A stretch of DNA of 64,000 nucleotides from Gammaproteobacteria bacterium (GCA_963665575.2 CAXXDW010000002.1:71936-135935), one strand, 5' to 3'; positions 6,954-39,467 are shown, numbered from the stretch's first letter. Notes: generated by a model not told the origin, from the sequence alone. A program made the numbers and translations.

Positions 6954-7352
6954 TTACTCTGTGGTCTGCTGATCCGGCGCGATCTCGATGCCGAACAAGT
7001 GGCCTTCGATCCGGGCGGTGCGGCGGTCGACGCTGTCGAGTTGGGCGCGCATTGCCGCGTGCTCGCCCCGCATTTCCATGCGGATGTCGCGGAGGTCGCC
7101 TCGAATGGCCGCGTGCTCGCCCCGCACTTCCATGCGGATGTCAGCGTGCTCGCCCCGCATTTCCATACGGATGTCAGCGTGCTCGTCCCGCATTGTGGCG
7201 TGTTCGTCGCGCATCTGCATTCGAATGGTGTCGAACCCGGCGCGCATCTCGGCTCGCATGCCGGCAAACTGGAACTGCATCAATGTCGCAAGCGCCGCAA
7301 TCGCCAGAACGCCGGTGCAAATCGCGGTGATTACTTGCAGCCACTCTTTCAT
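6954..7352 (-). CDS. Small N-terminal-TM coiled-coil protein with EHA heptad/hendecad repeats
   Basis: MKEWLQVITAICTGVLAIAALATL TM segment, repeats of EHADIRMEMRG, end RRTARIEGHL. Start set at 7352 because TGCTACGAT lies 7 nt upstream. Confidence 0.7.
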   Translation of the reverse strand: MKEWLQVITAICTGVLAIAALATLMQFQFAGMRAEMRAGFDTIRMQMRDEHATMRDEHADIRMEMRGEHADIRMEVRGEHAAIRGDLRDIRMEMRGEHAAMRAQLDSVDRRTARIEGHLFGIEIAPDQQTTE

Positions 7353-7642
7353 CGTTGTGATCGTAGCACGCGGTCGCAGGTATTCCACGGGCGAATCGGG
7401 ACGATCCGTTCAGTTTCGGCCCGGCCGCCAAGAGGCGTGGCTTCGCGGTCGCTCCGGTAGCCGAGAGGCGTGGCTTCTCGAACGCTTCGGCCGCCGGGTC
7501 CCAGGCGTCGCTAAATGCTCTCGCCCACCACGTTGATCCGCCAGACGCCGTCGCCCTGGTGCGAGGCAGCACGCCTGCCCAGGCACTCGAAAAGCGCTGG
7601 TCGCCCGATGACGATGGGCGGCGTCGCGTCCGATCCTGCCCC

Positions 7643-10600
7643 TCATTCCTCCTGCGCCAGCGGGTAATCGTCGAGGTACCGGATGAGCACGTTGACGTTG
7701 TCGCGCACCTCCACGAGGCGTTGCGGGCTCGCGACCTGCAGATCGCCGCCGAGGTCGTTCGCGATCCCCACGAGGTTCTCGCGCAACTGTGCCAGTTCTT
7801 CCGCAGACAACCTGTAACCGAGGTTGGCGAGTGCGGTCAGGTTGTCGTTGTTGAACCTTGCGAGCGCGTTTGACGATTCGACGAGTCGGTCGGCGTCGCC
7901 GAGCGTCAGGGCGCTCATGGCCCTGAGCGTGTGCAGAGCATCGTTCGGCGCCACGATCAGGGCGTCCTCGATGATTCGCAGCGCCTCCGCGGCGAGCTGT
8001 TCCCGGTTTTCGCCGGCGTTGAGCCGCCAGGCGGCGCGCAGTTGCGCCGCTTCCGGGTACCAGACGTCGGTCACGATGCTCTCGGCCAGGGCTTCGTCGA
8101 GCGCCGCGAGCGCCTCCCAGTCGCCCGCTGAATCGTACGCCGCACCCTCGATCACGGCTGCCGGCGTGGCGGAAAGCTCGGCCGCAATCTGCCGGATTTC
8201 TTCGGGTGCTTCGCCGCGGCTCAGCGCGTTGAGGTCTTCGCTGACGAAGCTGTAGCGCGCCTGCATGTTGAGCGGGTCCGCCCCCAGCGCATTGGTCAGG
8301 GATTCGCGCGCACGTTCGGACTCTCCGGCAGCCCTGAAGAGCTGTCCGAATATCTCGAGCTGTGTGGAAAAGTCAGGCAGTGCCGCGGCCATCTGCGTTG
8401 CGCGCAGTGTCTGCCCCTTGGCCACGAGCCGCCGCGCGAGGTAGCCGTAGTCGATGCGCTCGCCCATCTCCGCGTGGACCCAGCTTTCGGCGCGCTCCAA
8501 CGGGTCGTACGGCATGAGCAGGTCCAGCAGCTCTGCGCGCTGCAGGCCGTCGCCGCGCGGCCGACTCCGAGTCGCCATGAGGTTGTTGTCGTCGGTGCTG
8601 ACATCGGCGCGGCTCGCGAACAACCGAGTGCTTTCTTCATCGAGCACCAGTGCCGCCAACAGATCCTCAACGCCGTTGATGCCGATTCGGTTGTAGTGCC
8701 TGACGTCGTCGCTGATCGGCCGGCCGCTCCGCGCAAGCTCGAGCTCGACGTCGAGAGCTGCGTCAGACGCCAGGAACATGAGTACACGAGCGAACGGCTG
8801 GTAGAGCCTCACGTAGTCGTACTCGGCGACCAGCGTGGCAGCGAGGCTCCGCAACAGCGGTGCATCCACGAATTCGGAGTTCATCCACTGCAGAAACACT
8901 CCGCCCTCGTTGAGGTGGCTCTTGGCCTCGGCGACGAACTCGCGCGTAAATAGATGCGACGCGCCGGCGGTCCATGGATGCGACGGCTGGGAGACGATCG
9001 CGTCATACGACTTGTCGGTCAGCCTCAGGGCATTGCGCGCGTCGTTGGTCACGATATTGACCCTGGGATCCGCCAGCGGGTCGACGTCGCGTATGCCCGA
9101 AAGCTGCCGATTGGCCTCGATCACCTCGGGTTCGAGCTCGATTACGTCGATCGTCTCGACGGACGGCGGTGTCGCCTCGAGCGCGACTCCGCCGCCGAAG
9201 CCGACCACGAGCATGTCCCGCGTGTCGGGACGCGCGACGACGGGCAGCGCCGTCAGCCACTTTTGCGAATCGAGCACCGGCGGCGATCCCTTGATCCAGA
9301 CGGCAGCTTCGGCAAGGCCGTTGGTGCGCAGAAAGATATTTGTGTCCGCGGCCAGCACCATGACCGTCGAGGAGCGCCCGACGGCATAGTGCAGTTCCCG
9401 GGGCGGGGTCGCATAGGTCACGTTGAATCCGGCGCTCGACATCACCGCCTCGGGTCGGGCGGGGCTGTAGATCGTCAATACGGCAACGAGGCCGGCAGCG
9501 GCGACCCCGATGGGGACGGGGCGCGGTTTCGCCACGCAGCTCGCGGCCCAAAGCGCCAACAGGCAGTTGGCGCCAACGGCGAAGCGGATCGAGCCCTCGA
9601 ATCCGAGGCCGGGAATGAGTACGAACCCGGCAAGAATCGCGCCGATGATCGCGCCCACCGTGTTCCAGGCGTAGATGCGCGCCGTGCCCGTCGTGGCTTC
9701 GCTCTCGTCGCGTGCCAGCACTCTTATAGAAAGAGGCAGAGTGGCACCGATGAAAATCGTCGCCGGCAACATGACCGCCGCCGCGAATACCGCCAGCGTC
9801 CAGGTGGTCCGGACCTCGGGAATCAGCCGCTCCATCCAGGCGTAGACCCCGATGGAGAGCACCGCGACCGCAAACTGCGCGAAAGCGAACGCGACCGCAG
9901 CCCGGTCGCGGCGCTCTGCGATCCTGCCTGCCAGCCCGCCGCCGAGCGCGATGCCGGTCAGAAACGCGGCGAGCATCGTGGCGAACGCGTAAATGCTGCC
10001 GCCGATGACGTGCGTCAGTATCCGGGTCCAGAGCACCTCGTACAGAAAGGCGGTGGCGCCCGAGGCCAGCATGAGCACCGGCATCCAGGCGGGCTGAGTG
10101 AGGAACACGGTGGCCAGGCGCTCCCGAAGCGTTGTCGTACCCTCGATCAGCGGCCGCACGCAGGCCGAGACGAAACCCGGCGGCCCCGCCGCGGCTGCGG
10201 CGTGCTCCGCCGGTGCGCTGTCACGCCGGCCGCGGGCCAGCGCCGCCGCGATGACGAATACGAGTGCGTTGACGGCGACGCCGACCCACACGGTGCGACT
10301 GAGACCGAGCGCCGGCAACAGCAAGAACGCGGCGAGGACCGTACCGCAGACGGCGCCCGCCGTGTTGATCGCGTAGAACAGCGCGACCCGCGGCCCGACT
10401 TCCCGGTCTGTCCTCACGGCATAGCGGATCAAGAGCGGCAGCGTCGCGCCCATGAAACCCGTAGGGATGGCGAGCACCACGAACGCCACGAGCAGGTAGA
10501 AGATCGGCTGGCCGATGGCCGCGGCATCCGGCGGCGTCGGCTGGTCGCCGAGCATCGACGCGTAGAGCGCCCGGGCGGCGAAGAGCAGCAGCGGAACCGC

Positions 10601-10972: not shown

Positions 10973-11477
10973 CGTGACGGGTCCCTGAGGAGAGTGTGGG
11001 CGATGCACGGCTATTATGACGGAGTGCGAATCGAAGGGGTGGCTTGTCGTGCTGCAAGGTTCCGGTACGGGCAGCTCGCTCGGTACGCCGCATCTGTTTA
11101 TAAGGTGTCCTGCGGCGTTCGTCCTTGCCCGTAAATGGCGCAAACCACCCTCGACCCCGACACGTGGATCCGCCCGGTTTCGCATGGCACGGCGACAGCT
11201 TCGCCGCGGGCGGTCGCAGGCGGGAGCCGCAGCACGAGTGGATCCAGGGCCCGGCGAAAACCGCACAGGCTTCCAATCGCCGCAAAATGCCCCTACACTT
11301 TCGGAGTCGTAACGCGCGTCAGCTTGAAACCCTCTCGGGCGATGCAGACGACATAGCCAAGATTGTTGTTGACGGACAGTAGTTACGCGGCGACAATTAC
11401 GGCGGTTGGGGCAGCGGCGTTATGGGACGGTAGGTTTTGTACCACACTGTCTGCCGCAAAAAATGTTGACCGGAAGG

Positions 11478-11506: not shown

Positions 11507-11649
11507 CCGGCCTGAGTGTGGTCTGTTTTCTTGGAGAGGCATGCGCTTCCCGGACTTGGGCCGCGATGCGGAGTTGACTGGCTCGATTCTTTTCTGAGCT
11601 AATTTTTTTGTTAGGGGCAAACTTGATGTCTGATCATAGGGGAACTCGC

Positions 11650-14196
11650 ATGATGACTCTGAAACGTTTACTGGCTACGGCGCTGGGTGCGCTCGGGTTG
11701 TGGGCACTCGGTGTAGCGCCAGCATCCGCACAGCAGATCCCGGCCCCTGATGCATACGAAAATCCGCTGGCGTGTCAGAACGCTCTTCCGGTGGGGCCGC
11801 CCATGCGGCCGAGCACGAAGCACCCGCTTGATGACGCGATAAAGGCAGGCATGCTGGGTGATCTGGAAGCCACGCTTACGTTCATGGCCGAAGCATGTCT
11901 TCCGGATACAGATCCCGTCGGCGGCGGCATCGCAAAGGCTCGCACGCTCTACAACGCTGTTGTGGACGCGCAGGCCGACGTGGATGCGGCGCAAATGGCG
12001 TACGACGACGATGATTCCGCCGGCAATCTCGAAGACCTGAACGAAGCCAAGATGACTCGCGACATGGCGGTCATGGCCCGCAACAACTTCGCCGGCGGTA
12101 TGGCCGGTTCTGAGGGCATTGGCGCGGTGTACCAGTCAGTCTTCGATGAGGAAAAAGCCAAGGCCGATGCAACTGCCGCACACAGCGCATGGATGACGGC
12201 CCTCGAGGCGGAGACGGTAGCCGAGGAGCTCAAGGACTTGGTCTCACGCGACGACTTCATTTCGTCGTTTGCCGGGTTCGATTCGGACGGTAACCCGCTG
12301 ACGTTCGAGCTCTACGAACGTGCGGCAATTGACCTCAACGACGATGGTGATACGGACGACAGTGGCGAATTCGCTGCTACCACGTTTGTCCGTGTCAAGA
12401 AGGCAGACGGTACCTACGTTGGAACGGATGAGGCGGGCAACGCTCCTGAGTTAACTGTCAACGCTTTCGACCACGAGGCTGACATTATAAACGCCGACGA
12501 TACCTTGGCAGAGGGCGAGCTGGTTGCCCTCAGGCTAGAGACCTGGGATCCCGACGGCGCCGACGGTGACGCCGAAGCGCAGACCATCGTCGTTGTTACG
12601 ACCGATACTGAAGTTCTCGCCAACGTGATGTTCGGCGACGACACCACGAATGACGTTGACGGAGTCGACTCGCGGTACATGGACGCCAAGGATGCGTATG
12701 AGACCGCGCAAGAGAACAATGAAAACAACGTGGACGGTACGCGGGACGCCGCATTGGCGGAAGCCGAGCGCAGAGCGAAGGCACGCTACGACCACTTCAA
12801 GGCACAGCGCGATGCCGCGTACGACGACCTGCGCAAGGGCCGCCTGAGCTATACCGTGGACGGCGACAACCCGGACACCACCGAAATAGAAACTAGCTAC
12901 ATGGTCACCTACTCGGACGACGACTACGACAGCCTGATGGATCTGCAGGGTGACGAGGCATCTGCCGCCGCCGCCTTGAAGAGGGCTTACGATGATCGGA
13001 TTGCGAAGAGTAACGCCGTCGAGTCCAGCCAGCGGGACACCGAAGCGTACCTTGAGCAGTTGGTCAAATTGCGCGAATACGACAAGGCGCAGGCCGACGC
13101 CGCTGCCGAGGATGCCGACGCGGACGATCTGAATGACGACGGTCTGACAGCCGACCAGGTTGCTGCGAACATGGCGTTGGCGAATGCGCAGGGTCAGCAA
13201 ACTGCCTTTAACGACGTTCAGGCACTCCCGGACGGCCATCCCATCAAGAACTTGGTGAACGGGCTCTTGGCAGCCGATAACTCGATGGCTGACGACGACG
13301 GCCAGACGCTCGTGGATGCGATCTCCGATACGTACCAGACGGCCAACGATGCGGAGACCAAGGCCAACAACGCGATGAACGCTGTCTCCGGCCTGACCCG
13401 CGAAGATGGTGCGGTAGCCCAGAACACCGGGCGCGTCGAAAGCATCGAGTCCGAGCTCATGATCGATTCGGACGGCAACGGCACGATCATGCAAGACGAC
13501 GGGACCAGCATCAGCCGGCTCACCGACATCGAGAACAAGCTGGCGTTGAAGAAGGAATACATCGGAAACCTCGGCACACATATCGGTGTCGACCCCGTGA
13601 CGGGCTTGGGAACGGGCCCGGACGGCATGAGCCGCATCGACATCAACCAGGCGCTCAGCGAGGCCAACAGGGACGAGATCGGCATGGACGAGAACGGCAT
13701 GAGCCGCATCGACCATAACCAGGCGCGCAGCGAGGCCAACGCCGCGGAGATCGGCGTGGACGAGGACGGCAACAGCCGGATCGACCACAACGAGGCGCGC
13801 AGCCAGGCCAACTATATGGAAATCGGCATGGATGCCGACGGCATGAGCCGGATCGACCATAACCAGGCGCGTAGCATGGATAACGCGACCGATATCATGG
13901 CGATCCGTGGCATGGTCGATACCAATAGTTCGGGCATCAGTTCGAACAGGATGGCCATCGCCCGGAACTCCGAAGCCATCGAGACCCTGCGCTCAGGCGT
14001 GGCGGCTTCCATGGCGCTCGCGGGCATGCCCGAGATCGGCGACCGCGGTGTCTCCGTCGGTGCGGCGAGCTACGACGGCGAGTCGGCCTTCGCGGTTGGC
14101 GTGCACTTCTCCGGCGAGAACTCCCGCTTCAAGCTCGGTGTCACGAGCAGCGGTGGCGAGACCGGCGCCTCCGTCGGTGCGGGCTGGAGCTTCTGA
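11650..14196 (+). CDS. Trimeric autotransporter adhesin (YadA-like C-terminal anchor)
   Basis: Signal peptide (…VAPASAQQ), acidic coiled-coil passenger, anchor LRSGVAASMALAGMP…VSVGAASYDGESAFAVG…GASVGAGWSF. Start could also be 11626. Confidence 0.88.
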   Translation: MMTLKRLLATALGALGLWALGVAPASAQQIPAPDAYENPLACQNALPVGPPMRPSTKHPLDDAIKAGMLGDLEATLTFMAEACLPDTDPVGGGIAKARTLYNAVVDAQADVDAAQMAYDDDDSAGNLEDLNEAKMTRDMAVMARNNFAGGMAGSEGIGAVYQSVFDEEKAKADATAAHSAWMTALEAETVAEELKDLVSRDDFISSFAGFDSDGNPLTFELYERAAIDLNDDGDTDDSGEFAATTFVRVKKADGTYVGTDEAGNAPELTVNAFDHEADIINADDTLAEGELVALRLETWDPDGADGDAEAQTIVVVTTDTEVLANVMFGDDTTNDVDGVDSRYMDAKDAYETAQENNENNVDGTRDAALAEAERRAKARYDHFKAQRDAAYDDLRKGRLSYTVDGDNPDTTEIETSYMVTYSDDDYDSLMDLQGDEASAAAALKRAYDDRIAKSNAVESSQRDTEAYLEQLVKLREYDKAQADAAAEDADADDLNDDGLTADQVAANMALANAQGQQTAFNDVQALPDGHPIKNLVNGLLAADNSMADDDGQTLVDAISDTYQTANDAETKANNAMNAVSGLTREDGAVAQNTGRVESIESELMIDSDGNGTIMQDDGTSISRLTDIENKLALKKEYIGNLGTHIGVDPVTGLGTGPDGMSRIDINQALSEANRDEIGMDENGMSRIDHNQARSEANAAEIGVDEDGNSRIDHNEARSQANYMEIGMDADGMSRIDHNQARSMDNATDIMAIRGMVDTNSSGISSNRMAIARNSEAIETLRSGVAASMALAGMPEIGDRGVSVGAASYDGESAFAVGVHFSGENSRFKLGVTSSGGETGASVGAGWSF
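13624..13884 (+). repeat. 72-bp (24-aa) tandem repeat x~3.6 in the adhesin stalk
   Basis: GMSRIDHNQARSEANxxEIGMDEN units start at 13624, 13696, 13768 and 13840. Confidence 0.85.
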
Positions 14197-14264
14197 ACCC
14201 ACCCCGATCTGACGGTTGACCTTACAACCGGCGGTCCGAGCAATCGGGCCGCCGGTTTCTCTTT
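14038..14264 (+). repeat. Direct repeat copy 1 (adhesin 3' end + terminator)
   Basis: Aligns without gaps to 14964-15190 (offset 926). Confidence 0.9.
14226..14264 (+). terminator. Rho-independent terminator
   Basis: AACCGGCGGTCCGA-GCAA-TCGGGCCGCCGGTT followed by TCTCTTT. Confidence 0.8.
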
Positions 14265-14317
14265 GGGGGCGCCAAAACTGCCGGGAACCGAATGGTGCCG
14301 ACGCTCCGGACTGTTCG

Positions 14318-14644
14318 CTAAGCTGAAACGCGCAAGATCTGCGCTCGTGGCCGGTTGGCCAGAATGTCAATGATCTCCGGGACTCGCGGGCGCAAGTCCT
14401 GAAAACGATTGCGATGCGCAAGGAGAACGATCACCGCAATCGGCAGATTGCTCTCGTTCTGTTGATACTCGAACCCGCGGTCGACGGTGACCAACGCGTC
14501 GAATCCGCTCGCGGCAGCAAGTTCGAGCAATTCGCCGTTCGAACGCCCGGCCCAGCCCATTGCGGGCACAGTCCGCACATCAAATGAGTCGGGGAAGCAG
14601 GACGCGAGGCGCCGCGGAACGGGTTCGTCAAGCAGCAGCTTCAA
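14318..14644 (-). CDS. DUF5615-type PIN-like toxin (VapC45-like)
   Basis: MKLLLDE…GWAG…NGELL…FDALVTVDRG…QQN; overlaps a DUF433 gene. Confidence 0.85.
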   Translation of the reverse strand: MKLLLDEPVPRRLASCFPDSFDVRTVPAMGWAGRSNGELLELAAASGFDALVTVDRGFEYQQNESNLPIAVIVLLAHRNRFQDLRPRVPEIIDILANRPRAQILRVSA

Positions 14645-14864
14645 TCGAATCGGACAACACCATGGTGGTTGCCCTCTCCAGCAACGCTATCGCTTGTTCG
14701 CGAGTTACGGTAGGAAAGTCGTCCAGAAACTCCTCGAGCCGATCACCGGCTTCAAGGTGATCCATCAGTATGCGTACGGGTACCCGGGTTCCGGCGAACA
14801 CCGGAGTTCCGCCCAGGATCTCGGGGTTTCGATCAATGAGCTTCTCGGTCATGATGCTTGCCAT
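14628..14864 (-). CDS. DUF433 antitoxin
   Basis: IDRNPEILGGTPVFAGTRVPV…FLDDFPTVTREQ. Start at 14864 or 14852. Confidence 0.9.
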   Translation of the reverse strand: MASIMTEKLIDRNPEILGGTPVFAGTRVPVRILMDHLEAGDRLEEFLDDFPTVTREQAIALLERATTMVLSDSIEAAA

Positions 14865-14963
14865 CTTGGGAGCAGGGTGAACACGCTCTTGCTGGACTTC
14901 CGGTTGGTCTATCCCTTTGCAACGCTGAAAGTATGCCACAACTGCGTAGCTGTTCAGCAGTCC

Positions 14964-15122
14964 GGTGACCGCGGCGTTGCGGTCGGCGCCGGCAGCTACG
15001 ACGGCGAGTCGGCCCTTGCGGTTGGCGTACACTTCTCCGGTGAGAACTCCCGGTTCAAGCTCGCCGTCACGAGTGCGGACGGCGAGACCGGAGCGTCGGT
15101 CGGTGCGGGCTGGAGCTTCTGA
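14964..15122 (+). pseudogene. Remnant YadA anchor (3' fragment of a second adhesin gene)
   Basis: GDRGVAVGAGSYDGESALAVGVHFSGENSRFKLAVTSADGETGASVGAGWSF*. No passenger or start; mostly synonymous differences from copy 1. Confidence 0.8.
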
Positions 15123-15151
15123 GCCAACTCCGATCTGACGGTTGACCTTAC

Positions 15152-15190
15152 AACCGGCAGTCCGAGCAATCGGGCCGCCGGTTTCTTTTT
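15152..15190 (+). terminator. Rho-independent terminator (duplicate of 14226)
   Basis: AACCGGCAGTCCGA-GCAA-TCGGGCCGCCGGTT followed by TCTTTTT. Confidence 0.75.
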
Positions 15191-15323
15191 CTGGGCATCG
15201 AAGCCATTCGGCCAGGCACAAGTGCAGTCCGACAAAGCAAATTAAGTATCCCGGGTATGTGTACAAAAATATTAAAATTCTGCTTCACATGGGCGTAACA
15301 ATCGGCTATTGTGCACTTCCATC

Positions 15324-18300
15324 ATGGCGACAGAGTGGCTGTGGGAGTTCCGCCACCGTCGGCGCCTGATTGGCGCGTACCCCGCGACCAACTACCCCCT
15401 CCTGAAATGCCTTCTGATCGTCCTTGCCGCCGTGCCATTTGCGGCGGCGGCTCAGCAGGGGCATGCACCCGAAACGGGTATTGAGCAACCAAACGCTCTG
15501 CTGTCCAACGCCGGTGCATCGTCCGCTGGATGGACGGATTCGGTCCTGGCGCAGGGCTTCATCACCGGCCACATCCCCGGCGGCTACCGGCTCGGCGGCG
15601 TGGAACTGTTTCTCGACGAGCCGCCGGACACACTACCTGCCCGGCCGGTCGTCACGCTCCACGAAGACGAGATTGGCGAGCCCGGCGAGCGCGTGGTGGT
15701 CTTCGCGAATCCCGCGAGCTACACGGCGGGCGGCAACCGCTTCGAGGCGCCGCTTCCGATCGTACTCAGTGCCCGCAAGGCCTATCACCTGCTCGTAAAC
15801 CTCGGCGCTGACCGGCCACTGGCATTGGAACTCGTGTTTCCAGGCAAGGCGGATGGCCCGAGCGCGGATGCCCAGTGGGTCGCGCGGACGGGATCCCAAA
15901 CGCTGCTCGACAACTTGGAGTGGCGCTTCAATGACGGTTTTGCGCTGCGCTTCACGCTCCTTGAAGCCGGCGAGGACATACCGCCGCCTGCACCGCGCCT
16001 CTCACTGACTGTTGCCGCGGCGGTGCCGGTTGCCGCACCGCCAGGCGATTCGGAGGATTCCGGCGGCAGTACGGCGCAGGTCGAGCCCGATCCGCGGGAC
16101 GAGAGTTTCGAGCCCGCTCCGATGTCTGCGCCCGGTTCGAGTGAGGCCACCAGCGCGGGTTTTGAAGGCGCGGCGTCGTCGTCAGCGTCGATTGCAGCAA
16201 CCGACGAAAGCGCGGCAACGGCTGACACGCCCGATCCTCCGCCGGCCGAGGCAGCGATGCCTGCGCCACCGCCACCTGCCGCGCCGGAGGCCGCCGCCGA
16301 TTCACCGACACCGATCATGGCGCAAAACTCTCGGCTGCCGGAAACGTCGGACGATGACGACGACGAGGCAGCCGTGCCAGTGCCGCGCAGCAGTCCCAGC
16401 CGAACCGGAGTGATTGTGGGTGCAGCGCTCGCCGGCGTCGCACTCATTGCGGGGTCCGATGGCGACGACTCACCACCGGGAGAGCAACCGAGCCAGACGA
16501 CACCGCCGGATCCACCGCCGCCTCCGCCCCCGCCGCCGCTGTCGGACGACGCGGCGCTGAGCGCACTGGCTGTCAGCGATACGGACGGCGCTGCCGTGGC
16601 GTTAATGCCGATGTTCTCGTCGACGGTTGCGAGCTACCTGGCGTCCGTTTCGAATTCTGTGTCGGTGGTCACGGTCCTGCCGATGGCGAACCACGCCGAA
16701 GCTGAGTTCGAGTTCCTCGGCGGCGACGATATGCCGCTCGCGGTTGCCAATGGCGGGACGGCCGACTTTCAGGCGAATCTCGTGGTCGGAACGACAACGG
16801 TCAAGGTCAAGGTTACCGCCGAGGACGGTGAGGCGACGCAGACGTATGCGGTTGCAATCGAGCGCGCAGCACCGCCTCCGCCGCCCCCGCCGCCATTGTC
16901 GGACGACGCGACGTTGCGAGCGCTGTCGGTGAGCGACGGTGCGGGCAGCGTCGTGCCTCTGACACCGATGTTCTCATCGGCGCTAACGAGCTATGCGGCG
17001 TCGGTCGTGCATTCCGTGGCGACGGTGACGATCGTGCCGACGACGAATCAAGCCGAAGCGGAGTTCGGGTTTCTCGACGGTAACGACATGCCGCTCGCAG
17101 ACGCCGATACCGGGACGGACGACTTCCAGTTGGACCTCGTCGTCGGCATGACCACCGTGCAAGTCAAGGTCACGGCCGAGAACGGCGAGGCGATGCAGAC
17201 GTATGCAATTGCAATCGAGCGGGCGATGCCCCCGCCCCCGCCGCCGCTGTCGGACGACGCGAGGCTGAGAGCGCTGGCGGTAACCGACGCGGCGCGCATC
17301 GCCATACCGCTGACTCCGACGTTCTCGTCGGCCGTGACGAGCTATACGGCCTCTGTGGCGCACTCCGTGGCGACGGTGACGATCCTGCCGATGGTGAGCC
17401 ACGCGGGCGCCACGGTCGAGTTTCTCGACAGTACGGGCATGGGCCTTGAAGACGCGGATACCGGGGCCGCTGACTTCCAGTTCAATCTCGACGTCGGTCA
17501 GAACACGGTAAAGGTCAAGGTCACCGCCGAAAACGGCGAGGCCATGCAGACCTATGCAGTCACTTTGACACGTCCCATCGGCCCGCCCGAACGGGTACTG
17601 ATCACTCGGGTTCTTCCGGGTGCCGAAGCCCTGATCGTGTTCTGGAACGCGGTGAGCCTTGCCGACGGTTACCGGGTGCAGTGGAAGTCTGGAAACCAGG
17701 ACTTCGAACAGGGCGGCTCTCGTGAAGCCATCGTCACCGACGGCAATGCGGAGTCCTACACGATCCTGTACTTGCTGGCGGGCCGCGAATACACGGTGCG
17801 CGTGATCGCGACTCGCAACGGTGCCCAGGACGCCCCGCCGTCGAACGAGGCCAAGGGAACGCCCTTCGGCCAAACGGCGAGCGTCCAGCCAAATTCTGAC
17901 GGCGGCAGGAACGATGACGGTGCATCAAACGACGGGTCGGACGACGGCGACGACTCCGAACCCGAGGCCTGGCTGGCCGATCTCGAGGTTTTCGACCCCG
18001 ACGGCGACGAGGTCGCGCTGAGCCCGCCGTTCTCGACCCCGACTGCGAGCTACAGTGCAACTGTCGCCAACGACGTCGCCTGGGTCACCTTCAAGCCCAC
18101 GAAGAACGACCCGGCTTCGGTCGTCGTGTACGAGGACGGCTCCAACCAGACGCTGACCGACGCCGACGCGTTCCGTGGCGACTTTCAGGTGAACCTCAAC
18201 GTTGGCGCGAACGTGGTGAAGGTCCGGGTCTCTCACCCCGAGGCGCAGAGCCAGGGCACCTACACGGTGACGATCACCCGCGCGGCTGCGAACGACGTCA

Positions 18301-21300
18301 ACAACGACAACGAAGACAACAACCAGGGCGATAGCAACAACGCGCCGGAGTTCCCGGCGTCGACCGCCTCGCGCGATTTCGACGAAAACGTCGGCGACGC
18401 AACCTCGTCAGGCATCGACCTCGGCGCGCCGATTACGGCCGCCGATGACGACAGCGACACGCTGACCTACAGCCTCGAGGGCGCGGACGAGGCGGATTTC
18501 CTCATCGAGCCCTCGACCGGGCAGCTCTCGACGCGCTCAGGCACAAACTACAGCTACGAAACCCAAACCAGCTACTCGGTGACCGTAAAGGCCGACGACA
18601 GCAACGGCGGCACGGACACGATCGCCGTGACGATCGACCTCAACGACCTCGACGAGAAGCCGCTCAAGCCCGCCGCGCCTGGCGTGTCGTCAGTGTCCGA
18701 GCGCTGGACGAGACTCACCGTGAGCTGGTCGCCGCCGGACAACACCGGCCGCCCGTCCATCGCGACCTACGACCTGCAGTACAAGAAGCGCACCGAGACG
18801 GATCAGGACTGGAAGGACGGCCCGCAGAACGTCTCCGGCTCGCCGGCGAACCTGGATAACCTCGAAGCGAGCACGGCCTACGACGTGCAGATTCGCGCCA
18901 CCAATGCCGACGGCGACGGACCCTGGTCCGACTCCGGTTCCGGAACCACCAGCGACGCGCCGCCCGAGATCGAAAGCAACACGACCCGCAGCTTCGACGA
19001 GGACGTGGGCGACGGCACGCGAACCGGGGCCGATGTCGGCGCGCCCGTGACCGCGTCCGACCACGGCGCCAACCACAGTTATACGCTGAGCGGCACGGAT
19101 GCGGGCGCCTTCTCGATCGGTTCCACGACCGGGCAGATCCGCACGCTGAGCGGCGCCAACTACGACTACGAGGCCCAGAGCAGCTACTCGGTGATCGTGG
19201 ATTCCGACGACGGCAACAGCGGCACCGAGGCGATCCAGGTGATCATCAACGTCAACGACGTGACGGAGAAGCCGACGAAGCCCGCCGCGCCGATGGTCGA
19301 TAACATCGCCGGCAATACGCAGGTCATCTACGTGACCTGGACGGCGCCGTCGAACACGGGCCGCCCGCCGATCCTGAGCTACGACCTGCAATACCGCGAA
19401 GCGCCGAGCGGTTCCTGGTTCGACGGCCCGCAGGACGAGACCGGAATCACGGCAACCATCAGAGGCCTGTCGCCGAGCACCGAGTACGACGTGCAGGTTC
19501 GCGCCACCAACGCCGACGGCGACGGCCCCTGGTCCGACGACGGCAGCGCCACCACGAGCGCGGCGCTGCCAGCGACCTGCCTGATGTCGGAGAACGGCAA
19601 TTCGCGCTTGGCCGACGGCTTCACACCGAAAGAGGGGCGCGTTGAAGTCTGTGCCGAAGACCCCGACAACAGCGGCAGCTACATCTGGGGCGCGGTCTGC
19701 GACGACTACTGGACGGACGAGGAGGCGGGCGTGGTCTGCAGGCAGCTCGGCTATTACAACTCCGAACCCATCGGCGGCCGCTTCCTCAGGGCGTACTTCG
19801 GCGAGAGCGCGCTCGACTTCCTGCTCGACGACATGCAATGCGAGGGCACGGAATCGAATCTTCTGGGGTGCATGGTCGCAAGCGGCGGATTGGCCAGCAC
19901 GAAGATCGGCATGCACAACTGCAAGGCGACCGAAGCCGTTGGCGTGCGCTGCCTGACACAATCCGAATACGAGCAGCATGTACTTCAGATCGGGCCGGAC
20001 GAAAACAACCCGTCGGCCACGCTCTCGATCGCCGACGTGGACGTCTACGAGACCGCCGGCACGACCATGGACTTTGTGGTGACGCTCGCGGGAACCGCGC
20101 AGGGCACGGTGACCGTCAACTACGCGACTCAGGACGGCACGGCAAAGGCCAACGTCGATTACGTGCCCAAGAGCGGCATGGTGACCTTCCCGCCGGGTAC
20201 GACATCGCAAACGATCCGGATCACCGTTCTGGACGACCTCGTCGACGAGCACGACGAGCACGGCGAGCGGATGACCGTGCGGCTCTCTAGCGCCATCGGC
20301 GCGCGCATTGTAGACGGCGTGGGCTATGGGACCATCGAGAACAGCGACCCGCTGCCGCAGGCCTGGCTCGTCCGCTTCGGCCGCGCCGCCGCCGACCAGG
20401 CTGTCGAGGCGGTCACCAGCCGGATGTTCGAGCAGCAGGGCGCCCGGGCGTCGGAGCTCACTGTTGCGGGCCACAGGCTCGATCTCACCGGCGACGTGGA
20501 TCCGGCCGTGGCGGCTGCGATGGCGCAGGGGATGTACGGGGCGTATGGCTGGCCCTCCTCTGGGAGGGGGGTGGCGGGTTGGCCCTCCTCTGGGAGGGGC
20601 GTGGGCGGCTGGCCCTCCTCTGGGAGGGGGTCGGTTGGCTGGCCCTCCGGCGGGAGGGGGGTGGCTGGGTGGCCCTCCTTTGGGATGGGGTCGGCCGGAT
20701 TCGGGCAGGCCGGCCTCGCGAATGCGGGCTACGGCGGCAGCAATGCGTACGGATTGCTGGCCGGCAGTTCCTTCCGATGGGCGCTCGGCGCGGACGGCGA
20801 TATCGATGCCGACTCCGGCCGTGCTGGCCGCGAACCGGGCGCGATCTGGACGGCCTGGGGCTCGGGTGCCGCAACGCGCTTCAGCGGCAGCGACGACACG
20901 CTGTCGCTCTACGGCGACATCGCGACCGCCACGCTCGGCCTCGACCGCGAGCTCGGGTCATGGCTCACGGGCGTCGCGCTCGCCTTCAGCGTGGGCGAGG
21001 GCGGGTTCGCTCCGATCGGCGATGCCTCGGCTGTCGCCGCAGCCGGCGGCGCGGCGGCGCTCGACGCGGCAGTGGTCGGCGCGGCGGACGGGGCCATCGC
21101 GGGCGGCCTGATCGAAACGACCCTCACGACGCTCTATCCCTACGCGCGTTATGCGGTCAACGACCGGCTCTCGGTCTGGGGAATGCTCGGCTACGGCCAG
21201 GGCGATCTCAGGCTCATCGAGGGGCGGGCCGGCACGGCCTACGTTACCGACACCGGCATGGTCATGGGTGCGTTCGGTGCCCGCGGCGTGATTCTCGAGC

Positions 21301-22065
21301 GCAACGGCTTCGAACTGGCGCTGCGCACCGACGCGATGCAGGTGCGCACGGATTCAGACTCGGCGCCGGGGCTCGCAAGCTCCACGGGCGACACCGGCCG
21401 GGTCCGGGCGCTGCTTGAGGGCTCGCGATCGTTCGCCCTGGGCACGGGCCGCTCGCTTGAGCCGACCGTGGAGTTCGGGCTTCGCAACGACTCCGGCGAC
21501 GCCGAAACCGGCAGCGGCGTCGAGCTCGGGCTCGGCGTGCGTTACTCCGATGCGGCGCTCGGGCTGAGTGTCGAGGCCCGCGCCCGCGGCCTCGTGACCC
21601 ACCAGGACGCGAACTACGAAGAGTGGGGCGCCTGGGCGACGGTCAGGATCGATCCGGGCGACGACGGCCGCGGCGTCTCGCTGTCGCTGTCGCCGAGCTG
21701 GGGCGTGGCCGGCAGCGGCATGAACCGGATCTGGAACTCAGGCTTCGGCGGCGGTTACGGGGCGGGCTTCGGGCGCGGCTACGGCGGCGCCCCGGGCTAC
21801 GGCGGCACGTCCGGCAATCAATTCGACACGGCCGGTCGGCTGACCGCCGAACTCGGCTACGGCGTCGGCGCCTTCCAGGGGCTCGGCCTCGGCACCTGGT
21901 ACCTCGGCCTCGACCGGGGCCGGCCAGGACGCGCAACGCTTGCGCCTCGGCCGCCGCTGGCAACTCGGCACGCAACTGCACATGAGCGTCGAAGGCGCCC
22001 GCAACGAGTACTGGCTGCTCGATCCGGACCACTCCATCAGCGTCGGCGGGCTCGTGATCTGGTAG
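15324..22065 (+). CDS. Giant surface protein: 4 cadherin-like beta-sandwich, 3 FN3, 2 cadherin, SRCR, Calx-beta, C-terminal autotransporter-like barrel; +1 frameshift near 3' end
   Basis: LSDDA(A/T/R)LxAL repeats; FN3 (WSPPDNTGRP, YDVQxRATN); NNAPEF and DYE cadherin motifs; SRCR (EGRVEV…WGAVCDD…VVCRQLG…DDMQCEG…GVRC); Calx-beta (TVNYATQDGTA). Removing one G from GGGG at 21916-21919 gives …LRLGRRWQLG…ISVGGLVIW* with TAG at 22063-22065. Start uncertain. Confidence 0.85.
20547..20696 (+). repeat. 30-bp in-frame tandem repeat x5 (GWPSSGRGxx) with internal palindrome
   Basis: ggytggCCCTCCtctgGGAGGGg… units. Confidence 0.9.
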
Positions 22066-22135
22066 CGCGCGAAACGGGCGCGGTTCCCCAGGAATCCAAA
22101 TTGCCTTCCTGGCGCTGCGTGCTACGCTGGTGCGC

Positions 22136-22391
22136 ATGTCGCCGGAAATGTACACGATCATCAGCGTCGCCATAGGTCTTGCGGCGCTCATCCTGAACGG
22201 CCAGCGCGGCGTGTGGGAATTGCGCAAGGAGATAATTGGCCTGCGCAAGGAAATTACCTACCTGCGCAAGGAAATCGCGGTGGTTCGTGAACAGATTGCG
22301 GCGCTCGCAGAGCGCGTGGCCCCGCCTGGAGGGCGTCATTCTCGGTCCCCGCGGCTTTGCTCGCGAAACCGGTACGGGTGAGCCCGCGTAG
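22136..22391 (+). CDS. MSPEMY-family TM + coiled-coil protein, copy 1 (+1 frameshift at CCCC 22320-22323)
   Basis: MSPEMYTIISVAIGLAALIL…LRKEI heptads…ERVA/RLEGVILGP; paralog of 34572 and 36145. Confidence 0.75.
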
Positions 22392-22655: not shown

Positions 22656-22922
22656 ATGCGTATCGAGACGGAAATAAAAAAGTGGGGCAACAGCCTGGCA
22701 TTGAGGGTAACCGGCGCCATGGCCGAACTACCTCGATTCAAGCCCGGTACGCGGGTTACCGTCGACGTGAGCGGGGACGGATTTGTCGTCAAGCGTGCGC
22801 AGGGGCGGATCGGAAAGTTCCGCTTTCCCCATGATGAAGCCGCGCTGTTGGCGGAAATGACTGCGGAAAATTCACATGCGGATTTGCTTGCAGATCCGGT
22901 CGGTCCCGAGATCGGCGACTAG
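22656..22922 (+). CDS. mazE: MazE/AbrB-family antitoxin
   Basis: MRIETEIKKWGNSLALR…; directly upstream of a PemK/MazF toxin. Confidence 0.9.
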   Translation: MRIETEIKKWGNSLALRVTGAMAELPRFKPGTRVTVDVSGDGFVVKRAQGRIGKFRFPHDEAALLAEMTAENSHADLLADPVGPEIGD

Positions 22923-23282
22923 ATGGCCGCGCTGGCCTATGTCCCCGAACGGCAGGACATCGTTTGGCTCGACTTCGAGCTGACCAAGGGCAAGGAGATC
23001 GGCAAGAATCGGCCAGCGCTCGTGTTGAGCAGTCGCGACTACAACAGCAGGGCGGGTCTGCTGATCTGTTGTCCGATCAGCACCAGCATTCGCGGCGGGT
23101 CCACGGAAGTGCCGATCGCCCATCTTGACCAGCCTACCGGCGTTGCCGCGAACCTGGTCCAGACCCTGGCCTGGAGGGAGCGAAAGGCGCGAAGGATCGC
23201 TGCTGCGACGTCTGAGGAGTTCAGGTCGACCTTGTTGAAGCTGTTGCCGTTGCTGGGCGCTCTCGACATTCCTGGCGACTGA
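22923..23282 (+). CDS. mazF: PemK/MazF endoribonuclease toxin
   Basis: YVPERQDIVWLDF…GKEIGKNRPALVLS…YN…CCPIST. Confidence 0.9.
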   Translation: MAALAYVPERQDIVWLDFELTKGKEIGKNRPALVLSSRDYNSRAGLLICCPISTSIRGGSTEVPIAHLDQPTGVAANLVQTLAWRERKARRIAAATSEEFRSTLLKLLPLLGALDIPGD

Positions 23283-23416
23283 CGACCTCGGCGCCACCGA
23301 CCGGCGGGCCACGTCAGTCGCACAGAACCACTTGATGCCGTACGTATGCGCCTGCGCGAGGAGAACGAGCTGCGCGAGGCGTATGGCCAATGACCGAGCG
23401 AATCTCCCACCACTGC

Positions 23417-23491
23417 TCAAGAACACCGATAGGCGGCGATATCTTCCGGCGTTTGCAGAAATTCGCTGGCCCGATGAATCTTGATTGGCAT
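23417..23491 (-). pseudogene. Fragment of addiction-module antidote (HI1420-like), copy 1
   Basis: MPIKIHRASEFLQTPEDIAAY, then truncated. Confidence 0.55.
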
Positions 23492-23588
23492 CTTGTTTCT
23501 CCCACTTGTAGGCATTTCAGTTTCCGGTTATTTGATTGCATTGCTAGCATTGCGTAAATTGTCGCTACGGACCTGAGAGGAGCCGAGA

Positions 23589-23833
23589 ATGGCGAGCATT
23601 ACGATCCGAAATATCGACGACGAGGTGAAGACACGGCTACGTGTGCGCGCAGCACAAAACGGCCGATCCATGGAAGAGGAAGCCCGTCGCATCTTGCGCG
23701 AAGCGGTCCGGCGCAAGCACGACTCGCAAGATCTCGCGAGGCTTATCGGTGCTCGGTTCGGGGGCCTCTTGGTGGCGTGGAGCTCGAGTTGCCGCCGCGA
23801 GAGCCGGGTCGCGAGCCGCCCATTTTCGACTAG
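23589..23833 (+). CDS. fitA: FitA-like ribbon-helix-helix antitoxin (frameshift in G run ~23760-23764 reads it through into VapC)
   Basis: MASITIRNIDDEVKTRLRVRAAQNGRSMEEEAR. The paralog at 36667 shows the normal C-terminus, which here ends at TAG 23831-23833 in another frame. TGCTAGCA palindrome upstream. Confidence 0.8.
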
Positions 23834-23843
23834 GCAGGCGGCG

Positions 23844-24266
23844 ATGATCCTGCTGGACACCAACGTCGTTTCCGAACTTATGCGTTTGTCGCCTGACCCG
23901 GTCGTTGTAGCCTGGGTGTCCGATCGTCCGGCGGACAGTCTGTACTTTTCCGCCATTGGCGAGGCGGAACTGCGCTACGGACTGCAAGTTATGCCGATGG
24001 GACGGCGCAAGGAGAGAATTGGTTCCGAGGTGGAAGCCATGCTGCAGGAGGATTTCCAGGGGAGGATCCTGCCCTTCGACAGCGCTGCGGCTCGTGCATA
24101 CGCGAGCATTGCCGCAACGCGACGGGCGGCTGGCCGTCGCGTTGCCCTGGCCGATAGCCAGATCGCGGCAATCGCTGTTTCCCGCGGCATGGCGGTGGCG
24201 ACCCGCAATGTCCGGGATTTCGAGGACACGGAAATAGAGGTGATCAATCCCTGGTTGCAGGCATGA
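23844..24266 (+). CDS. vapC: VapC/FitB PIN toxin
   Basis: MILLDTNVVSELMR…ELRYG…DSQIAAIA…VATRNVRDF…INPW. Confidence 0.92.
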   Translation: MILLDTNVVSELMRLSPDPVVVAWVSDRPADSLYFSAIGEAELRYGLQVMPMGRRKERIGSEVEAMLQEDFQGRILPFDSAAARAYASIAATRRAAGRRVALADSQIAAIAVSRGMAVATRNVRDFEDTEIEVINPWLQA

Positions 24267-24320
24267 ACGGACTGCCGGTGATTGAATCGCCTTCCTGCTG
24301 CCGCGTGCTACGGTGCTGGC

Positions 24321-24359
24321 ATGCCCGACGTCATATACGTTGCGAAGGTACTGGCCTGA
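24321..24359 (+). pseudogene. Last 12 codons of a VapC (paralog of 35644-36039) fused behind an MSPEMY-type promoter
   Basis: atgcccgacgtcatatacgttgcgaaggtactggcctga versus 36001-36039. Confidence 0.7.
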
Positions 24360-24575
24360 CGCGGCCGTGTTTGCGATTCAACACCTGGACTGCGGACACT
24401 TATCGACGTGAATTTGCATCCGATCAGGTCTGCTGCATCGGTTCTCGCGTGTCTTGCGTTGGTCTCTGGCCGGCTGTCGGCGAGATCAACGCGGACACCG
24501 CGCTCGATGAAACGACCATTGGCGCTAGTCTGTGCCTGGTTCGCGGCGACATCAGCACGGGCAATACTACGTAGC

Positions 24576-24613
24576 TTGCCCGTGTATTCAATATTGTTTA
24601 ACTTGAATACACG
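24576..24613 (+). promoter_or_regulatory. parDE promoter/operator
   Basis: TTGCCC-N17-TAACTT overlapped by a perfect 11-bp inverted repeat CGTGTATTCAA-N11-TTGAATACACG. Confidence 0.75.
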
Positions 24614-24633
24614 ATACGCGGTGAGAGGAGTTC

Positions 24634-24900
24634 ATGCGGCGCACGACCACGATGACGGTGCGCATCAGCGGTGCACTTAGCGACTTTGTCTCGGCCAATG
24701 TGGGCGAATCGGGGGCATACGAGAGCGTCAGTGAGTACATTCGCGACCTGATTCGCCGCGACAAGACTCGGGCCGAGCGGGAAGCCCTGGAACTTCTGAA
24801 GGCCGAGCTGAAACGCGCCTTTGCTGCGCCGGACGATTCCTACCATGCGCTGTCGGCTTCCGACGTGATCGCGAGAAACCGGTTGCTACCGAAGGCATGA
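24634..24900 (+). CDS. parD: ParD-like RHH antitoxin
   Basis: TMTVRISGALSDFV…GAYESVSEYIRDLIRRD. Confidence 0.88.
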   Translation: MRRTTTMTVRISGALSDFVSANVGESGAYESVSEYIRDLIRRDKTRAEREALELLKAELKRAFAAPDDSYHALSASDVIARNRLLPKA

Positions 24901-25211
24901 CGCGGATACGCGTCCAGGAAGCGGCCGCAGCACGCATCGACGATATCTACCGCTACACCCGAGAGCGCTGGGGCGAGGCCCAGGCAGACGAATACGTCAC
25001 CGGCCTGTTTGACGCATTCGAAGGCATCGAGGCTGGCACGGCCGCATCGCGGCCGGTTCCCGCGCAGTTCGGGGTGGAGGGTTACGTCTTCCGATACAGG
25101 TCGCACTTCGTCTACTGGAAGCGATTGGCCGACGGAACACTCGGCATTGTCACGGTGCTGCATGAACGCATGCACCAGATCGGTCGATTCCTCGCGGATC
25201 ACGAGTCCTGA
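24897..25211 (+). CDS. parE: ParE/RelE toxin
   Basis: DDIYRYTRERWGEAQADEY…HFVYW…IVTVLHERM; ATGA overlap with parD. Confidence 0.9.
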   Translation: MTRIRVQEAAAARIDDIYRYTRERWGEAQADEYVTGLFDAFEGIEAGTAASRPVPAQFGVEGYVFRYRSHFVYWKRLADGTLGIVTVLHERMHQIGRFLADHES

Positions 25212-37640: not shown

Positions 37641-37776
37641 CAGCCGAAGGCGTGTCGTCGTCCATCGATTCCCGCCAAGCCGTCCACGGCTTCGAGTCCT
37701 TCCTGGGGCGCTTCTGACGAGCGCCAGGCACCGTTGCAACTGGCGCGATAGCGAGCCACCTGATCGGTGTTCTGGC

Positions 37777-38070
37777 TCAGGGTGTGGTCTCGGTTTGCCG
37801 CTCGATGCTGTCGAAGCGTTGATCGATGGAGTCGAAACGGCGGTCGATGGCGTCAAAACGACGATCGATGGAATCGAAACGGCGGTCGATGGCGTCAAAA
37901 CGACGATCGATGGAATCGAAGCGGAGGTCGATGGCGTCAAAACGGCGATCGATGGAATCGAAGCGGAGGTTAATCGAGTGGTGGCCGGACACCATCAGCG
38001 TTCCGAGCGCGACGCCCACACCGACGACGGTTACGCCGAGACCCATGATGGCCCAGATTTCCTTGCCCAC
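37777..38070 (-). CDS. Small N-terminal-TM protein with RFD(S/A)ID(R/L) heptad repeats
   Basis: Hydrophobic N-terminus plus about eight 21-bp tandem units. Confidence 0.72.
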   Translation of the reverse strand: MGKEIWAIMGLGVTVVGVGVALGTLMVSGHHSINLRFDSIDRRFDAIDLRFDSIDRRFDAIDRRFDSIDRRFDAIDRRFDSIDQRFDSIERQTETTP

Positions 38071-38294
38071 GCTGGAACACCGCGCTTACAAGTCATGACT
38101 GATGCTAGCACGCCGCCGCAGTAGGGCCGGTACTTCCAAATCTGGACGGTAGCTCGAGATTCTCCATAGGCTGGGAGGAGACACGCGCCCGACACGGTAT
38201 CGTTCCCTATTGGCGCAACTCACGCAGCGTACTATGCTAGCCGGTCAGGCTGCTTACGCCGCCGCACACCACAACAAGCAGCGGGGAGACGATC

Positions 38295-39431: not shown

Positions 39432-39467
39432 CGCTGCGCCGTCGTCGAAAGAACGGGAAGAGCCACG

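Follow-up and report, generated by a model that had tools for sequence, protein, structure and literature searches.

Small membrane-anchored coiled-coil proteins with predicted leaderless messages in a toxin–antitoxin hot spot of a gammaproteobacterium

Five genes and the unnamed family they point to

Five small genes in a 64,000-nucleotide stretch of DNA from a gammaproteobacterium (GCA_963665575.2, CAXXDW010000002.1:71936-135935; hereafter the window, from whose first letter all positions are counted) had been described, in an original prediction made by a model, as encoding proteins with an N-terminal transmembrane (TM) helix and a stalk of repeats. We found all five open reading frames (ORFs) at the starts given there, each displaying an N-terminal hydrophobic helix that is followed by a repeat-rich helix. 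Three of them are, by their sequences, close paralogs of one unnamed family: g2 (ORF 22136-22381, plus strand, or 22136-22391 with its out-of-frame tail), which directly follows a giant adhesin gene, g3 (34572-34817, plus strand; 81 residues) and g4 (36145-36432, plus strand; 95 residues). The other two appear to be weaker, more distant relatives or look-alikes, namely g1 (6954-7352, minus strand; 132 residues, with a TM helix, a coiled coil and the tail motif RTARIEG) and g5 (37777-38070, minus strand; a 97-residue TM protein with a GTG start, about eight 21-bp, i.e., heptad, repeats and no RLEG tail). A hidden Markov model (HMM) of the g2-g4 sub-clade recovers g1 and g5 at E values of 4.7e-8 and 0.005, and the hhalign probabilities are 54% for g1, on the tail portion alone, and 83% for g5, on the TM helix portion alone. 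A promoter block is common to g1 and g2-g4 (see below), and g5 has a paralog in its own genome (G000:C4:220305-220583; BLASTP E 1e-16).

The tail motif R(V/T)AR(L/I)EG that was said to end four of the proteins is present, but it is followed by 14-22 more residues, reads CVARLEG rather than RVARLEG in g4, and is out of frame in g2. In the latter, a run of C near 22320 has one surplus base and thereby changes the frame, so that the conserved RLEG tail runs on in another frame to 22388; as the sequence past the shift is identical to that of the intact ortholog in a related locus (L004), g2 has either suffered a very recent frameshift, which would make it a recent pseudogene, or been misassembled. 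The proposed variation of the stalk by 21- and 33-bp units is borne out both by the repeats and by the homologs: Tandem Repeats Finder reports periods of 33 bp in g1 (2.5 copies, 7111-7194, 94% matches), of 21 bp in g2 (2.6 copies, 22221-22275) and of 21 bp (7.9 copies) or 42 bp (3.6 copies at 96% matches) in g5 (37802-37970), and the homologs step by 7 and 11 residues, giving a heptad/hendecad stalk. Measured from NGQ to R[LIV]EG, the stalk spans 29-79 residues in 31 homologs, the differences being sums of 7 and 11 plus a 3/4-residue step, such that the indels keep the coiled-coil register. Contigs from four DNA runs, set against 34000-38200, are fragmentary; their two joints only reproduce the arrangement of a paralogous island (island A, see below), and no stalk-length indel occurs among the matches listed, a comparison that does not bear on variation within the population.

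With g4 as the query, we recovered 39 close homologs among 75 candidates. The N-terminus and TM helix hardly vary among them (M-S/T-P-E-x-Y-T-I-I ... L-I-L-N-G-Q), the stalk differs in length, and the sub-clade tail A-L-A-E-R-V-A-R-L-E-G-V-I-L-G-P-R-D-F follows. A pattern scan of one genome per species yielded 57 loci (L001-L057), whose translations reveal g2-g4 as a sub-clade of a wider family with the tail R-E-R-M-A-R/H-L-E-G-L-L-E-G-L-R-E-A-I; tail variants of the RLEGVILGPRDFARD type and the RLEGLLEGLREAI type were distinguished. A profile of 22 diverse members matched 2,844 proteins at E ≤ 0.001 among the 8,000 scored, none of which bears a functional name, as well as 1,912 representative clusters (50% identity), of which 329 reach E ≤ 1e-10; among the top cluster matches, a few are giant coiled-coil proteins, which we counted as false positives. 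No model of Pfam, NCBIfam or PADLOC reaches its cut-off with any of g1-g5, nor does any Pfam model with 18 diverse relatives, and the best PADLOC match (E 0.014) falls on coiled-coil stretches within large, unrelated proteins. In ESM-Atlas, every one of the nearest clusters is labeled 'hypothetical protein', a profile search of the PDB returned generic coiled coils alone (E 0.002 or worse), and a literature search by words, not by sequence, found no description of the family. Three PHROGs families of unknown function match g5 (E 2e-12 to 7e-10), probably via its heptad repeats, and the PHROGs matches of the other genes are weak. The suggestion that the family is undescribed is thus upheld, and a family of this size without a name or curated model is a candidate for a new family entry. 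Fusions are not a feature of it: among 7,999 candidates, the single matched protein of 306-2000 residues is an ankyrin read-through, and the nine long matches that we inspected are all N- or C-terminal read-throughs.

Wider-family relatives in the 57-locus scan come from records titled Latescibacterota, Nitrospirales, Bryobacterales, Dehalococcoidia, Binatia and others. When 301 genomes were searched, comprising the source genome (G000) and an even sample of 300 Gammaproteobacteria, with at most 16 candidates scored per genome, only the source genome had a match at E ≤ 1e-10. This patchy spread, over many phyla in records of metagenome-assembled genomes and absent from the 300 sampled Gammaproteobacteria, might reflect habitat-linked transfer or sampling bias.

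The ratio of nonsynonymous to synonymous divergence (dN/dS) is 0.33, 0.21 and 0.25 for three ungapped full-length pairs, and ranges over 0.06-0.70 in 30 comparisons of the first 26 or last 35 codons, with 29 of these at or below 0.43 and the outlier resting on six changes. The family genes are real and under purifying selection. AlphaFold2 models g4 (from a 26-sequence alignment) as one helix over residues 3-78, followed by a disordered tail at 82-95; the predicted local distance difference test (pLDDT) score exceeds 90 at 69 residues. The TM helix at residues ~6-22 is rich in small residues and has no polar face. Lysine and arginine average 3.35 in the 15 residues after the TM helix versus 0.05 in the six before it, a pattern seen in 37 of the 37 proteins with a recognizable TM end. 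As the positively charged flank of a TM helix faces the cytoplasm (the positive-inside rule), the N-terminus is predicted to lie outside and the coil in the cytoplasm, which argues against the surface-variation factor that had been entertained. The heptad pattern, taken by itself, suggests that the protein self-associates.

Promoter geometry and predicted leaderless expression

Upstream of g1-g4, CGTGCTA[CG]G[AC]T is followed by exactly 7 nt and then the ATG, as had been pointed out. The putative promoters of g1 (7360-7387, minus strand) and g2 (22101-22128, plus strand) consist of TGGAAT or TTGCCT, 16 nt ending in the extended -10 TGC, and TACGAT or TACGCT, and both end 7 nt before the ATG. 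In the upstream blocks of g3 (34506-34571, plus strand) and g4 (36079-36144, plus strand), the -35 is TTGGAT (34537-34542 and 36110-36115) and the -10, after TGC, is TAGGAT (34559-34564 and 36132-36137). The distinct motif claimed for g5, CGTGCTAGCAT, is likewise in place (38102-38112, minus strand), 31 nt upstream of the GTG start and with an out-of-frame ATG 5 nt after it.

We aligned, without gaps, the upstream regions of g1-g4 with those of the four closest loci from elsewhere. All eight agree in GCGTG.TA.G.T, in the T.G of the -35 and in the ATG, while the 16-nt and 7-nt spacers vary and the synonymous divergence of the coding parts reaches values above 1. The pattern TGnTAnnnT-N7-ATG occurs at 11 sites on both strands of 3.78 Mb; five of these open coding-like ORFs of at least 60 codons, and four of the five are g1-g4. 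A family relative at C6:841905 displays TGGTAGTCT, 6 nt and then ATG, amid unrelated flanks. Since all eight copies keep this geometry despite their diverging spacers, and the motif is rare genome-wide, the predicted leaderless expression of g1-g4 is well supported by sequence, in keeping with the extended -10 reading first proposed: a -10 that ends 7 nt ahead of the ATG would place the beginning of the mRNA on the start codon or right beside it. Among 43 loci in which the match begins at an ATG or GTG, TANNNT lies 5-9 nt upstream in 9, across at least five lineages, and a Shine–Dalgarno (SD)-like motif is found in 20; none has both and 14 have neither. At control offsets, TANNNT occurs in 0, 1 and 2 of the 43.

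That transcription instead starts further upstream, giving a leader or an N-terminal extension, with the conserved block serving as coding sequence or operator, we judge unlikely. Relatives such as P0004, P0006 and P0009 do have an ORF that begins 24-29 codons upstream and runs in frame through the block, P0009 having a GTG at the family start; about 70 nt are conserved upstream, beyond the needs of a minimal promoter; and g5 and a g1-like paralog (C2:53191) have leaders. Against this, g4 has no upstream in-frame ATG, and the upstream frame of g3 reads through a mazF remnant. The differences between the blocks of g3, g4 and L001 would, if read as codons, all be amino-acid-changing, and the invariant positions are those of the -35, TGn and TAnnnT; on our reading, the block is probably not coding. 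Moreover, an SD-like motif is found in none of the nine loci with a -10 at 5-9 nt. A hairpin with a U-rich tract spans the g3 stop codon (~34795-34844); the z-scores of this hairpin and of that at a family remnant (24545-24601, see below) are only -1.8.

A published study of Mycobacterium tuberculosis (PMC3898074) places TANNNT 7-12 bp, by its center, upstream of mapped start sites, associates the TGn extension with stronger promoters, describes leaderless genes as common there and rare in enterobacteria (18-83 leaderless mRNAs are cited for three of them), and reports that toxin–antitoxin (TA) modules are over-represented among leaderless genes, with 32 of 37 being leaderless. The genes in the window resemble these in that the start codon closely follows a -10 hexamer and an SD is missing; they differ in that the host is a gammaproteobacterium and in that the TA operons are here leadered and the small membrane genes are the ones predicted to be leaderless. 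The TGCTAG-type -10 is not private to the family, as it also occurs in the vapB promoters at 23589, 36667 and 35420, but there with leaders, which include clear SD sequences at 23589 and 36667. Since the TA operons beside the family genes have ordinary SD-bearing leaders, the idea that leaderless translation matters under MazF/VapC stress stays pure speculation.

About two dozen other genes of the same genome have TGnTAnnnT 6-10 nt before the ATG of a coding-like ORF. One of these, C3:1062219 (minus strand), looks by eye like a HigB/RelE-type toxin, and another, C2:146387, like a putative helix-turn-helix (HTH) protein. The organism may hold a small leaderless regulon.

A hot spot shared with toxin–antitoxin cassettes

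The picture of the family genes as embedded among TA modules holds for g2-g5, which lie in or at the edge of TA islands, but not for g1, whose neighbors encode an APH-type kinase and a spermidine-synthase/MFS protein, with no TA gene adjoining. Island A (22656-25211, plus strand) comprises a mazE-like gene, MazF (22923-23282), a FitA-like ribbon-helix-helix (RHH) domain fused to PIN (23589-24266), parD and ParE (24897-25211). Island B (34127-37759 overall, with genes on both strands) begins with a mazE-like gene and a truncated mazF, g3, parD and a truncated parE, an AbrB-PIN pair (35420-36039) and g4, and ends with an antisense antitoxin remnant (36483-36593), FitA-RHH (36667-36909), an HTH antitoxin (37017-37391, minus strand) and a broken ParE-like toxin (37410-37544, minus strand). 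Pfam models confirm MazF, the RHH/PIN fusion and ParE of island A, and the AbrB-PIN pair, FitA-RHH, the HTH antitoxin and the broken ParE-like gene of island B. The two islands have blocks in common that are 86-94% identical and cut at different points (e.g., 24555-25033 matches 34798-35277 at 93.8%), and mazF is intact in A and truncated in B. Island A also holds traces of the family: an orphan copy of the upstream block (23399-23433, plus strand), consisting of the first 35 nt of the g3/g4 block with no family gene behind it and marking a deletion junction, and, in front of parD, the predicted 3' remnant of a family gene (24545-24601, plus strand), with its last codons, stop and hairpin matching 34788-34844. 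As the A/B junction falls inside the antisense antitoxin remnant, the difference is a deletion in A and not an insertion in B, and this rules out precise insertion of a mobile unit. An integron cassette was also rejected: no TIGR02249 match exceeds the cut-off (best 60.7 versus 265 bits) and none lies on the contig (C2), and the units are bounded by deletion junctions that fall within other genes; for attC sites, no dedicated model was run.

A backbone of giant adhesin, subtilase and cytochrome c genes is common to the window and to L001, L002, L004 and L005, and the cassette sets within it differ. Of 61 genomes of the taxonomic family, 10 carry the sub-clade, which is confined to two genera (4 of the 4 other genomes of the own genus, 5 of 8 of the second, and 0 of 48 from twelve more), at 2-12 matches per genome that are clustered (six within 145 kb in G012) and include several with in-frame stops. 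Contig C2, which makes up 4.4% of the genome, holds 6 of its 19 PIN genes (P 1.2e-4) and 6 of its 10 family-like genes. Thus, the copies lie in a hypervariable hot spot and are reshuffled there together with TA cassettes.

For the best 32 of the 57 loci (L001-L032), we scanned 385 of the 641 ORFs of at least 50 residues within 1.5 kb, the other 256 having been dropped by a filter on third-codon-position GC content. A TA-type gene lies within this distance in 7 of the 32 (L001, L002, L004, L005, L006, L007 and L027); the other 25 have housekeeping or secreted-protein neighbors, and no neighbor is conserved over the 32. Examples of the former are uvrA, a tRNA synthetase gene, the family gene and ggt (L008, L010), dinG, the family gene and efp (L014), and clpA, infA, the family gene and aat (L032); RTX proteins are encoded upstream of the family gene in L016, L017, L018, L020 and L028. 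None of five further relatives in the source genome has a TA-type match within 2.5 kb (104 ORFs). Among the 28 family genes of five complete Rariloculaceae genomes, 7 have a listed PIN gene no more than 3 kb away; this test considered PIN alone, with 150 of 172 PIN matches listed. The proposed check for co-occurrence with TA genes gave a modest PIN enrichment in Rariloculaceae and, over the scanned loci, a majority of copies without TA genes. The TA link is real but local: most copies stand away from TA genes, and the partner family and order vary.

The genes accordingly do not look like the TA-associated component that was proposed. Each is a separate transcription unit with its own predicted promoter, the neighbors vary in kind (PIN, ParE, HigB, YoeB, MazF or none) and order, and no TA family is matched, which sets them apart from type II components. 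Type I toxins are peptides usually of fewer than 60 residues with an overlapping antisense RNA gene; the proteins here have 81-132 residues and are mostly soluble coil, and no Rfam match was found in 6000-40000.

The FitA-like RHH antitoxin and PIN toxin at 23589-24266 form one 225-residue ORF (Pfam matches at residues 2-40 and 87-214), and its paralog at 36667-36909 is a separate 80-residue antitoxin followed by a truncated toxin. The remnant at 36483-36593 (minus strand), of 37 codons, abuts the g4 unit, resembles by eye the start of an addiction-module antidote gene and has no Pfam match; a shorter version is found at ~23430-23491 in island A. The ParE-like frame at 37410-37544 (minus strand; E 4.1e-4) has an in-frame TAG, and the pair that it forms with the adjacent HTH antitoxin is 93% identical in L004. 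The family genes, in turn, are often found directly downstream of very large secreted or surface proteins, with RTX repeats (L016, L017, L018, L020, L028), a subtilase with a P-domain (L002, L024) or a cadherin/fn3/SRCR adhesin (L004 and 15309-22175 in the window), some of these cases probably being orthologous.

Proposed role and rival explanations

We posit that the family supplies stand-alone, homo-oligomeric membrane tethers that present a conserved C-terminal peptide, are made from leaderless messages, and have expanded within a hot spot prone to recombination, where TA cassettes accumulate too, a reading that we give about an even chance of being right. The products of g2-g4 and, more distantly, of g1 and g5 would be bitopic inner-membrane proteins of 81-132 residues, with about five residues outside the membrane and one TM helix that runs uninterrupted into a cytoplasmic coiled-coil stalk ending in the conserved tail. 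The proteins would assemble into parallel homo-oligomers that display the C-terminal peptide some way off the membrane and serve a putative cytoplasmic partner as tether or adaptor, and the stalk length would drift by slippage of the 21- and 33-bp units with the register kept. Each gene would be its own transcription unit under a sigma-70-type promoter whose extended -10 ends 7 nt before the ATG. A sub-clade of an otherwise stand-alone family would have multiplied in this genome's genus (putatively Candidatus Rariloculus), within one hot spot, where recombination between repeated copies would reshuffle family genes and TA cassettes; on this reading, the TA neighborhood is a shared address and not a shared operon. 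The sequences show directly the genes, their family, its purifying selection, the conserved promoter and the rearrangement of the islands; what we infer from these features is the topology, oligomer formation, the start of the message without a leader, and a role as adaptor.

Several observations weigh against this proposal. A generic promoter and terminator scan makes no call at the family genes, the sigma-70 search failing because the -35 matches only 3 of 6 positions; in some relatives an upstream ATG opens the in-frame ORF through the promoter block, and P0009 has a GTG for the ATG; and the transcription start is itself a prediction. AbrB-PIN followed by g4 persists between species (the L001 match is 81% over 1,152 nt) and the family-gene remnant followed by parDE recurs in L005, two adjacencies that could mean a functional tie rather than co-residence. 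In the five Rariloculaceae genomes, once neighboring family genes are merged, 4 of 21 loci lie within 3 kb of a listed PIN gene against 0.79 expected (permutation P 0.007). Finally, broken copies are frequent, as seen in the frameshift of g2, the in-frame stops of relatives and the remnants, and these fit a dispensable accessory gene equally well.

A membrane-active killer or lysis helper that oligomerizes through its coil (a holin, releasin, spanin-like protein, type I-like toxin or abortive-infection effector) seems to us quite unlikely. An N-terminal TM helix joined to a coiled coil does recall phage lysis proteins, the island is variable with many broken copies, and there are weak leads from ESM-Atlas (0.84-0.86, to Mu-like releasin, DUF2730, or a putative holin), Pfam (Phage_holin_2_4, E 0.014-0.017) and PHROGs (Rz-like spanin, E 0.0022; 'hol-like', 2.9e-5), but none of these scores reaches the level that the respective tool itself trusts. 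The neighbors scanned include no endolysin, o-spanin or other phage gene, no antitoxin or antisense partner was seen, Rfam is silent over the interval given above and the TM helix lacks a polar face. Core-type members stand singly between housekeeping genes (uvrA-tRNA synthetase-gene-ggt; clpA-infA-gene-aat; dinG-gene-efp), and a promoter that gives the impression of being strong and unregulated would ill suit a lethal product. Releasins, holins and Rz-type i-spanins are alike in being small, with an N-terminal TM helix and a helical or coiled-coil part; the family differs from them in having no lysis cassette in view nearby and in its predicted N-out/C-in topology. i-Spanins project their coil into the periplasm. 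With no PADLOC-DB model matched (best E 0.014) and no antitoxin-like partner, the toxin or phage-defense role raised in the original prediction finds no backing, and the family falls outside the known anti-phage systems covered there.

That the island copies are working TA partners, i.e., membrane effectors or sensors made from leaderless mRNA when MazF/VapC shut down ordinary translation, appears very unlikely. It would account for the position of g2-g5, for the TA genes within 1.5 kb in 4 of the 4 closest loci (L001, L002, L004, L005), for a roughly five-fold enrichment of PIN proximity and for the vapBC-g4 and g-parDE blocks kept across species, and it recalls the mostly leaderless TA modules of M. 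tuberculosis noted above. It sits poorly with neighbors of no fixed family or order (PIN, ParE, HigB, YoeB, MazF; upstream or downstream), with a predicted promoter for each copy and a hairpin of its own for g3, with the SD-bearing leaders of the adjoining TA operons, and with the 25 of 32 loci and 5 of 5 other relatives in the source genome that have no TA-type match nearby. The MazF-made leaderless regulon is itself a disputed idea. An extension of this reading, which we regard as highly improbable, would make the island paralogs a membrane 'landing pad' of TA islands, translated from leaderless mRNA precisely when MazF/VapC-type RNases silence leadered messages and capturing or positioning toxin, antitoxin or stalled ribosomes, the patchy spread then tracing habitat-linked horizontal transfer of a stress device. 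Scarcely credible is the view of the copies as decaying selfish or junk repeats without cellular function, for although g2 is frameshifted, remnants lie at 24545-24601 and 23399-23433, relatives' matches have in-frame stops and a copy at C3:901599 is degenerate, dN/dS is well below 1 at both protein ends with dS up to values above 1, the promoter is conserved, indels keep frame and coiled-coil register, and the family is large and found in many lineages.

The tether that we favor has partial counterparts among known proteins. CCDC90-like/DUF1640 proteins (PF07798) are likewise small single-pass membrane proteins with a long coiled-coil stalk, and two of them (P0038 and P0039, found at E 2.6e-4 and 8.5e-3) have stalk repeats much like those of g4. 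They have a head domain, then the stalk and then a C-terminal TM helix, unlike the N-terminal TM helix and missing head domain of the family here, and the likeness is confined to the repetitive coil: against a cut-off of 33.5 bits, g1 scores 21.2 bits (E 2.8e-4) and L008 17.0 bits, and g2-g5 have no match at E ≤ 1. One published account (PMC4786415) describes DUF1640 proteins as integral to the membrane, with the stalk at the C-terminus. FtsB/DivIC (PF04977), ZapG/YhcB-like (PF06295), LapA (PF06305) and PspB are alike in size and in having one N-terminal TM helix followed by a coiled coil; L003, g2 and g4 reach 28.4, 18.8 and 16.3 bits with PF04977, whose cut-off is 28.9 bits, and L025 has weak matches to ZapG-like (E 0.0012) and LapA_dom (E 0.00047), also under cut-off. 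Genes for FtsB/DivIC, ZapG, LapA and PspB are single-copy housekeeping genes in fixed contexts, unlike the present family, which is patchy, multi-copy in some genomes, located in an island and distinguished by its own LILNGQ and RLEG motifs.

With about 1,900 clusters at 50% identity, the family presents a clear-cut small membrane protein on which functional work could begin. It may also provide a naturally occurring set of leaderless genes from a gammaproteobacterium, a group in which such genes are thought rare, and the hot spot shows recombination of TA cassettes and small accessory genes between close species. Were the TA link functional, which is unlikely on present evidence, a membrane component would be added to type II TA biology.

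Elsewhere in the window, we found further Pfam-confirmed TA modules, an AbrB-PIN pair (29722-30409) and a DUF433/DUF5615 pair (14318-15266). The latter is flanked by direct repeats (14037-14270 and 14963-15196; 234 nt, 86% identical), each of which encodes the C-terminal end of a surface-protein gene (11608-14196) whose counterpart in L004 matches YadA_anchor; as both repeats encode the same gene's end, the pair looks inserted with duplication of the 3' end of that gene. Two proteins are eukaryote-like, one of 2,288 residues with cadherin, fn3, SRCR and Calx-beta domains (15309-22175) and one of 759 residues with ankyrin repeats (31893-34172). A 35-bp tandem repeat (5.9 copies, 78% matches) lies at 39460-39663, directly after the gene at 38295-39431.

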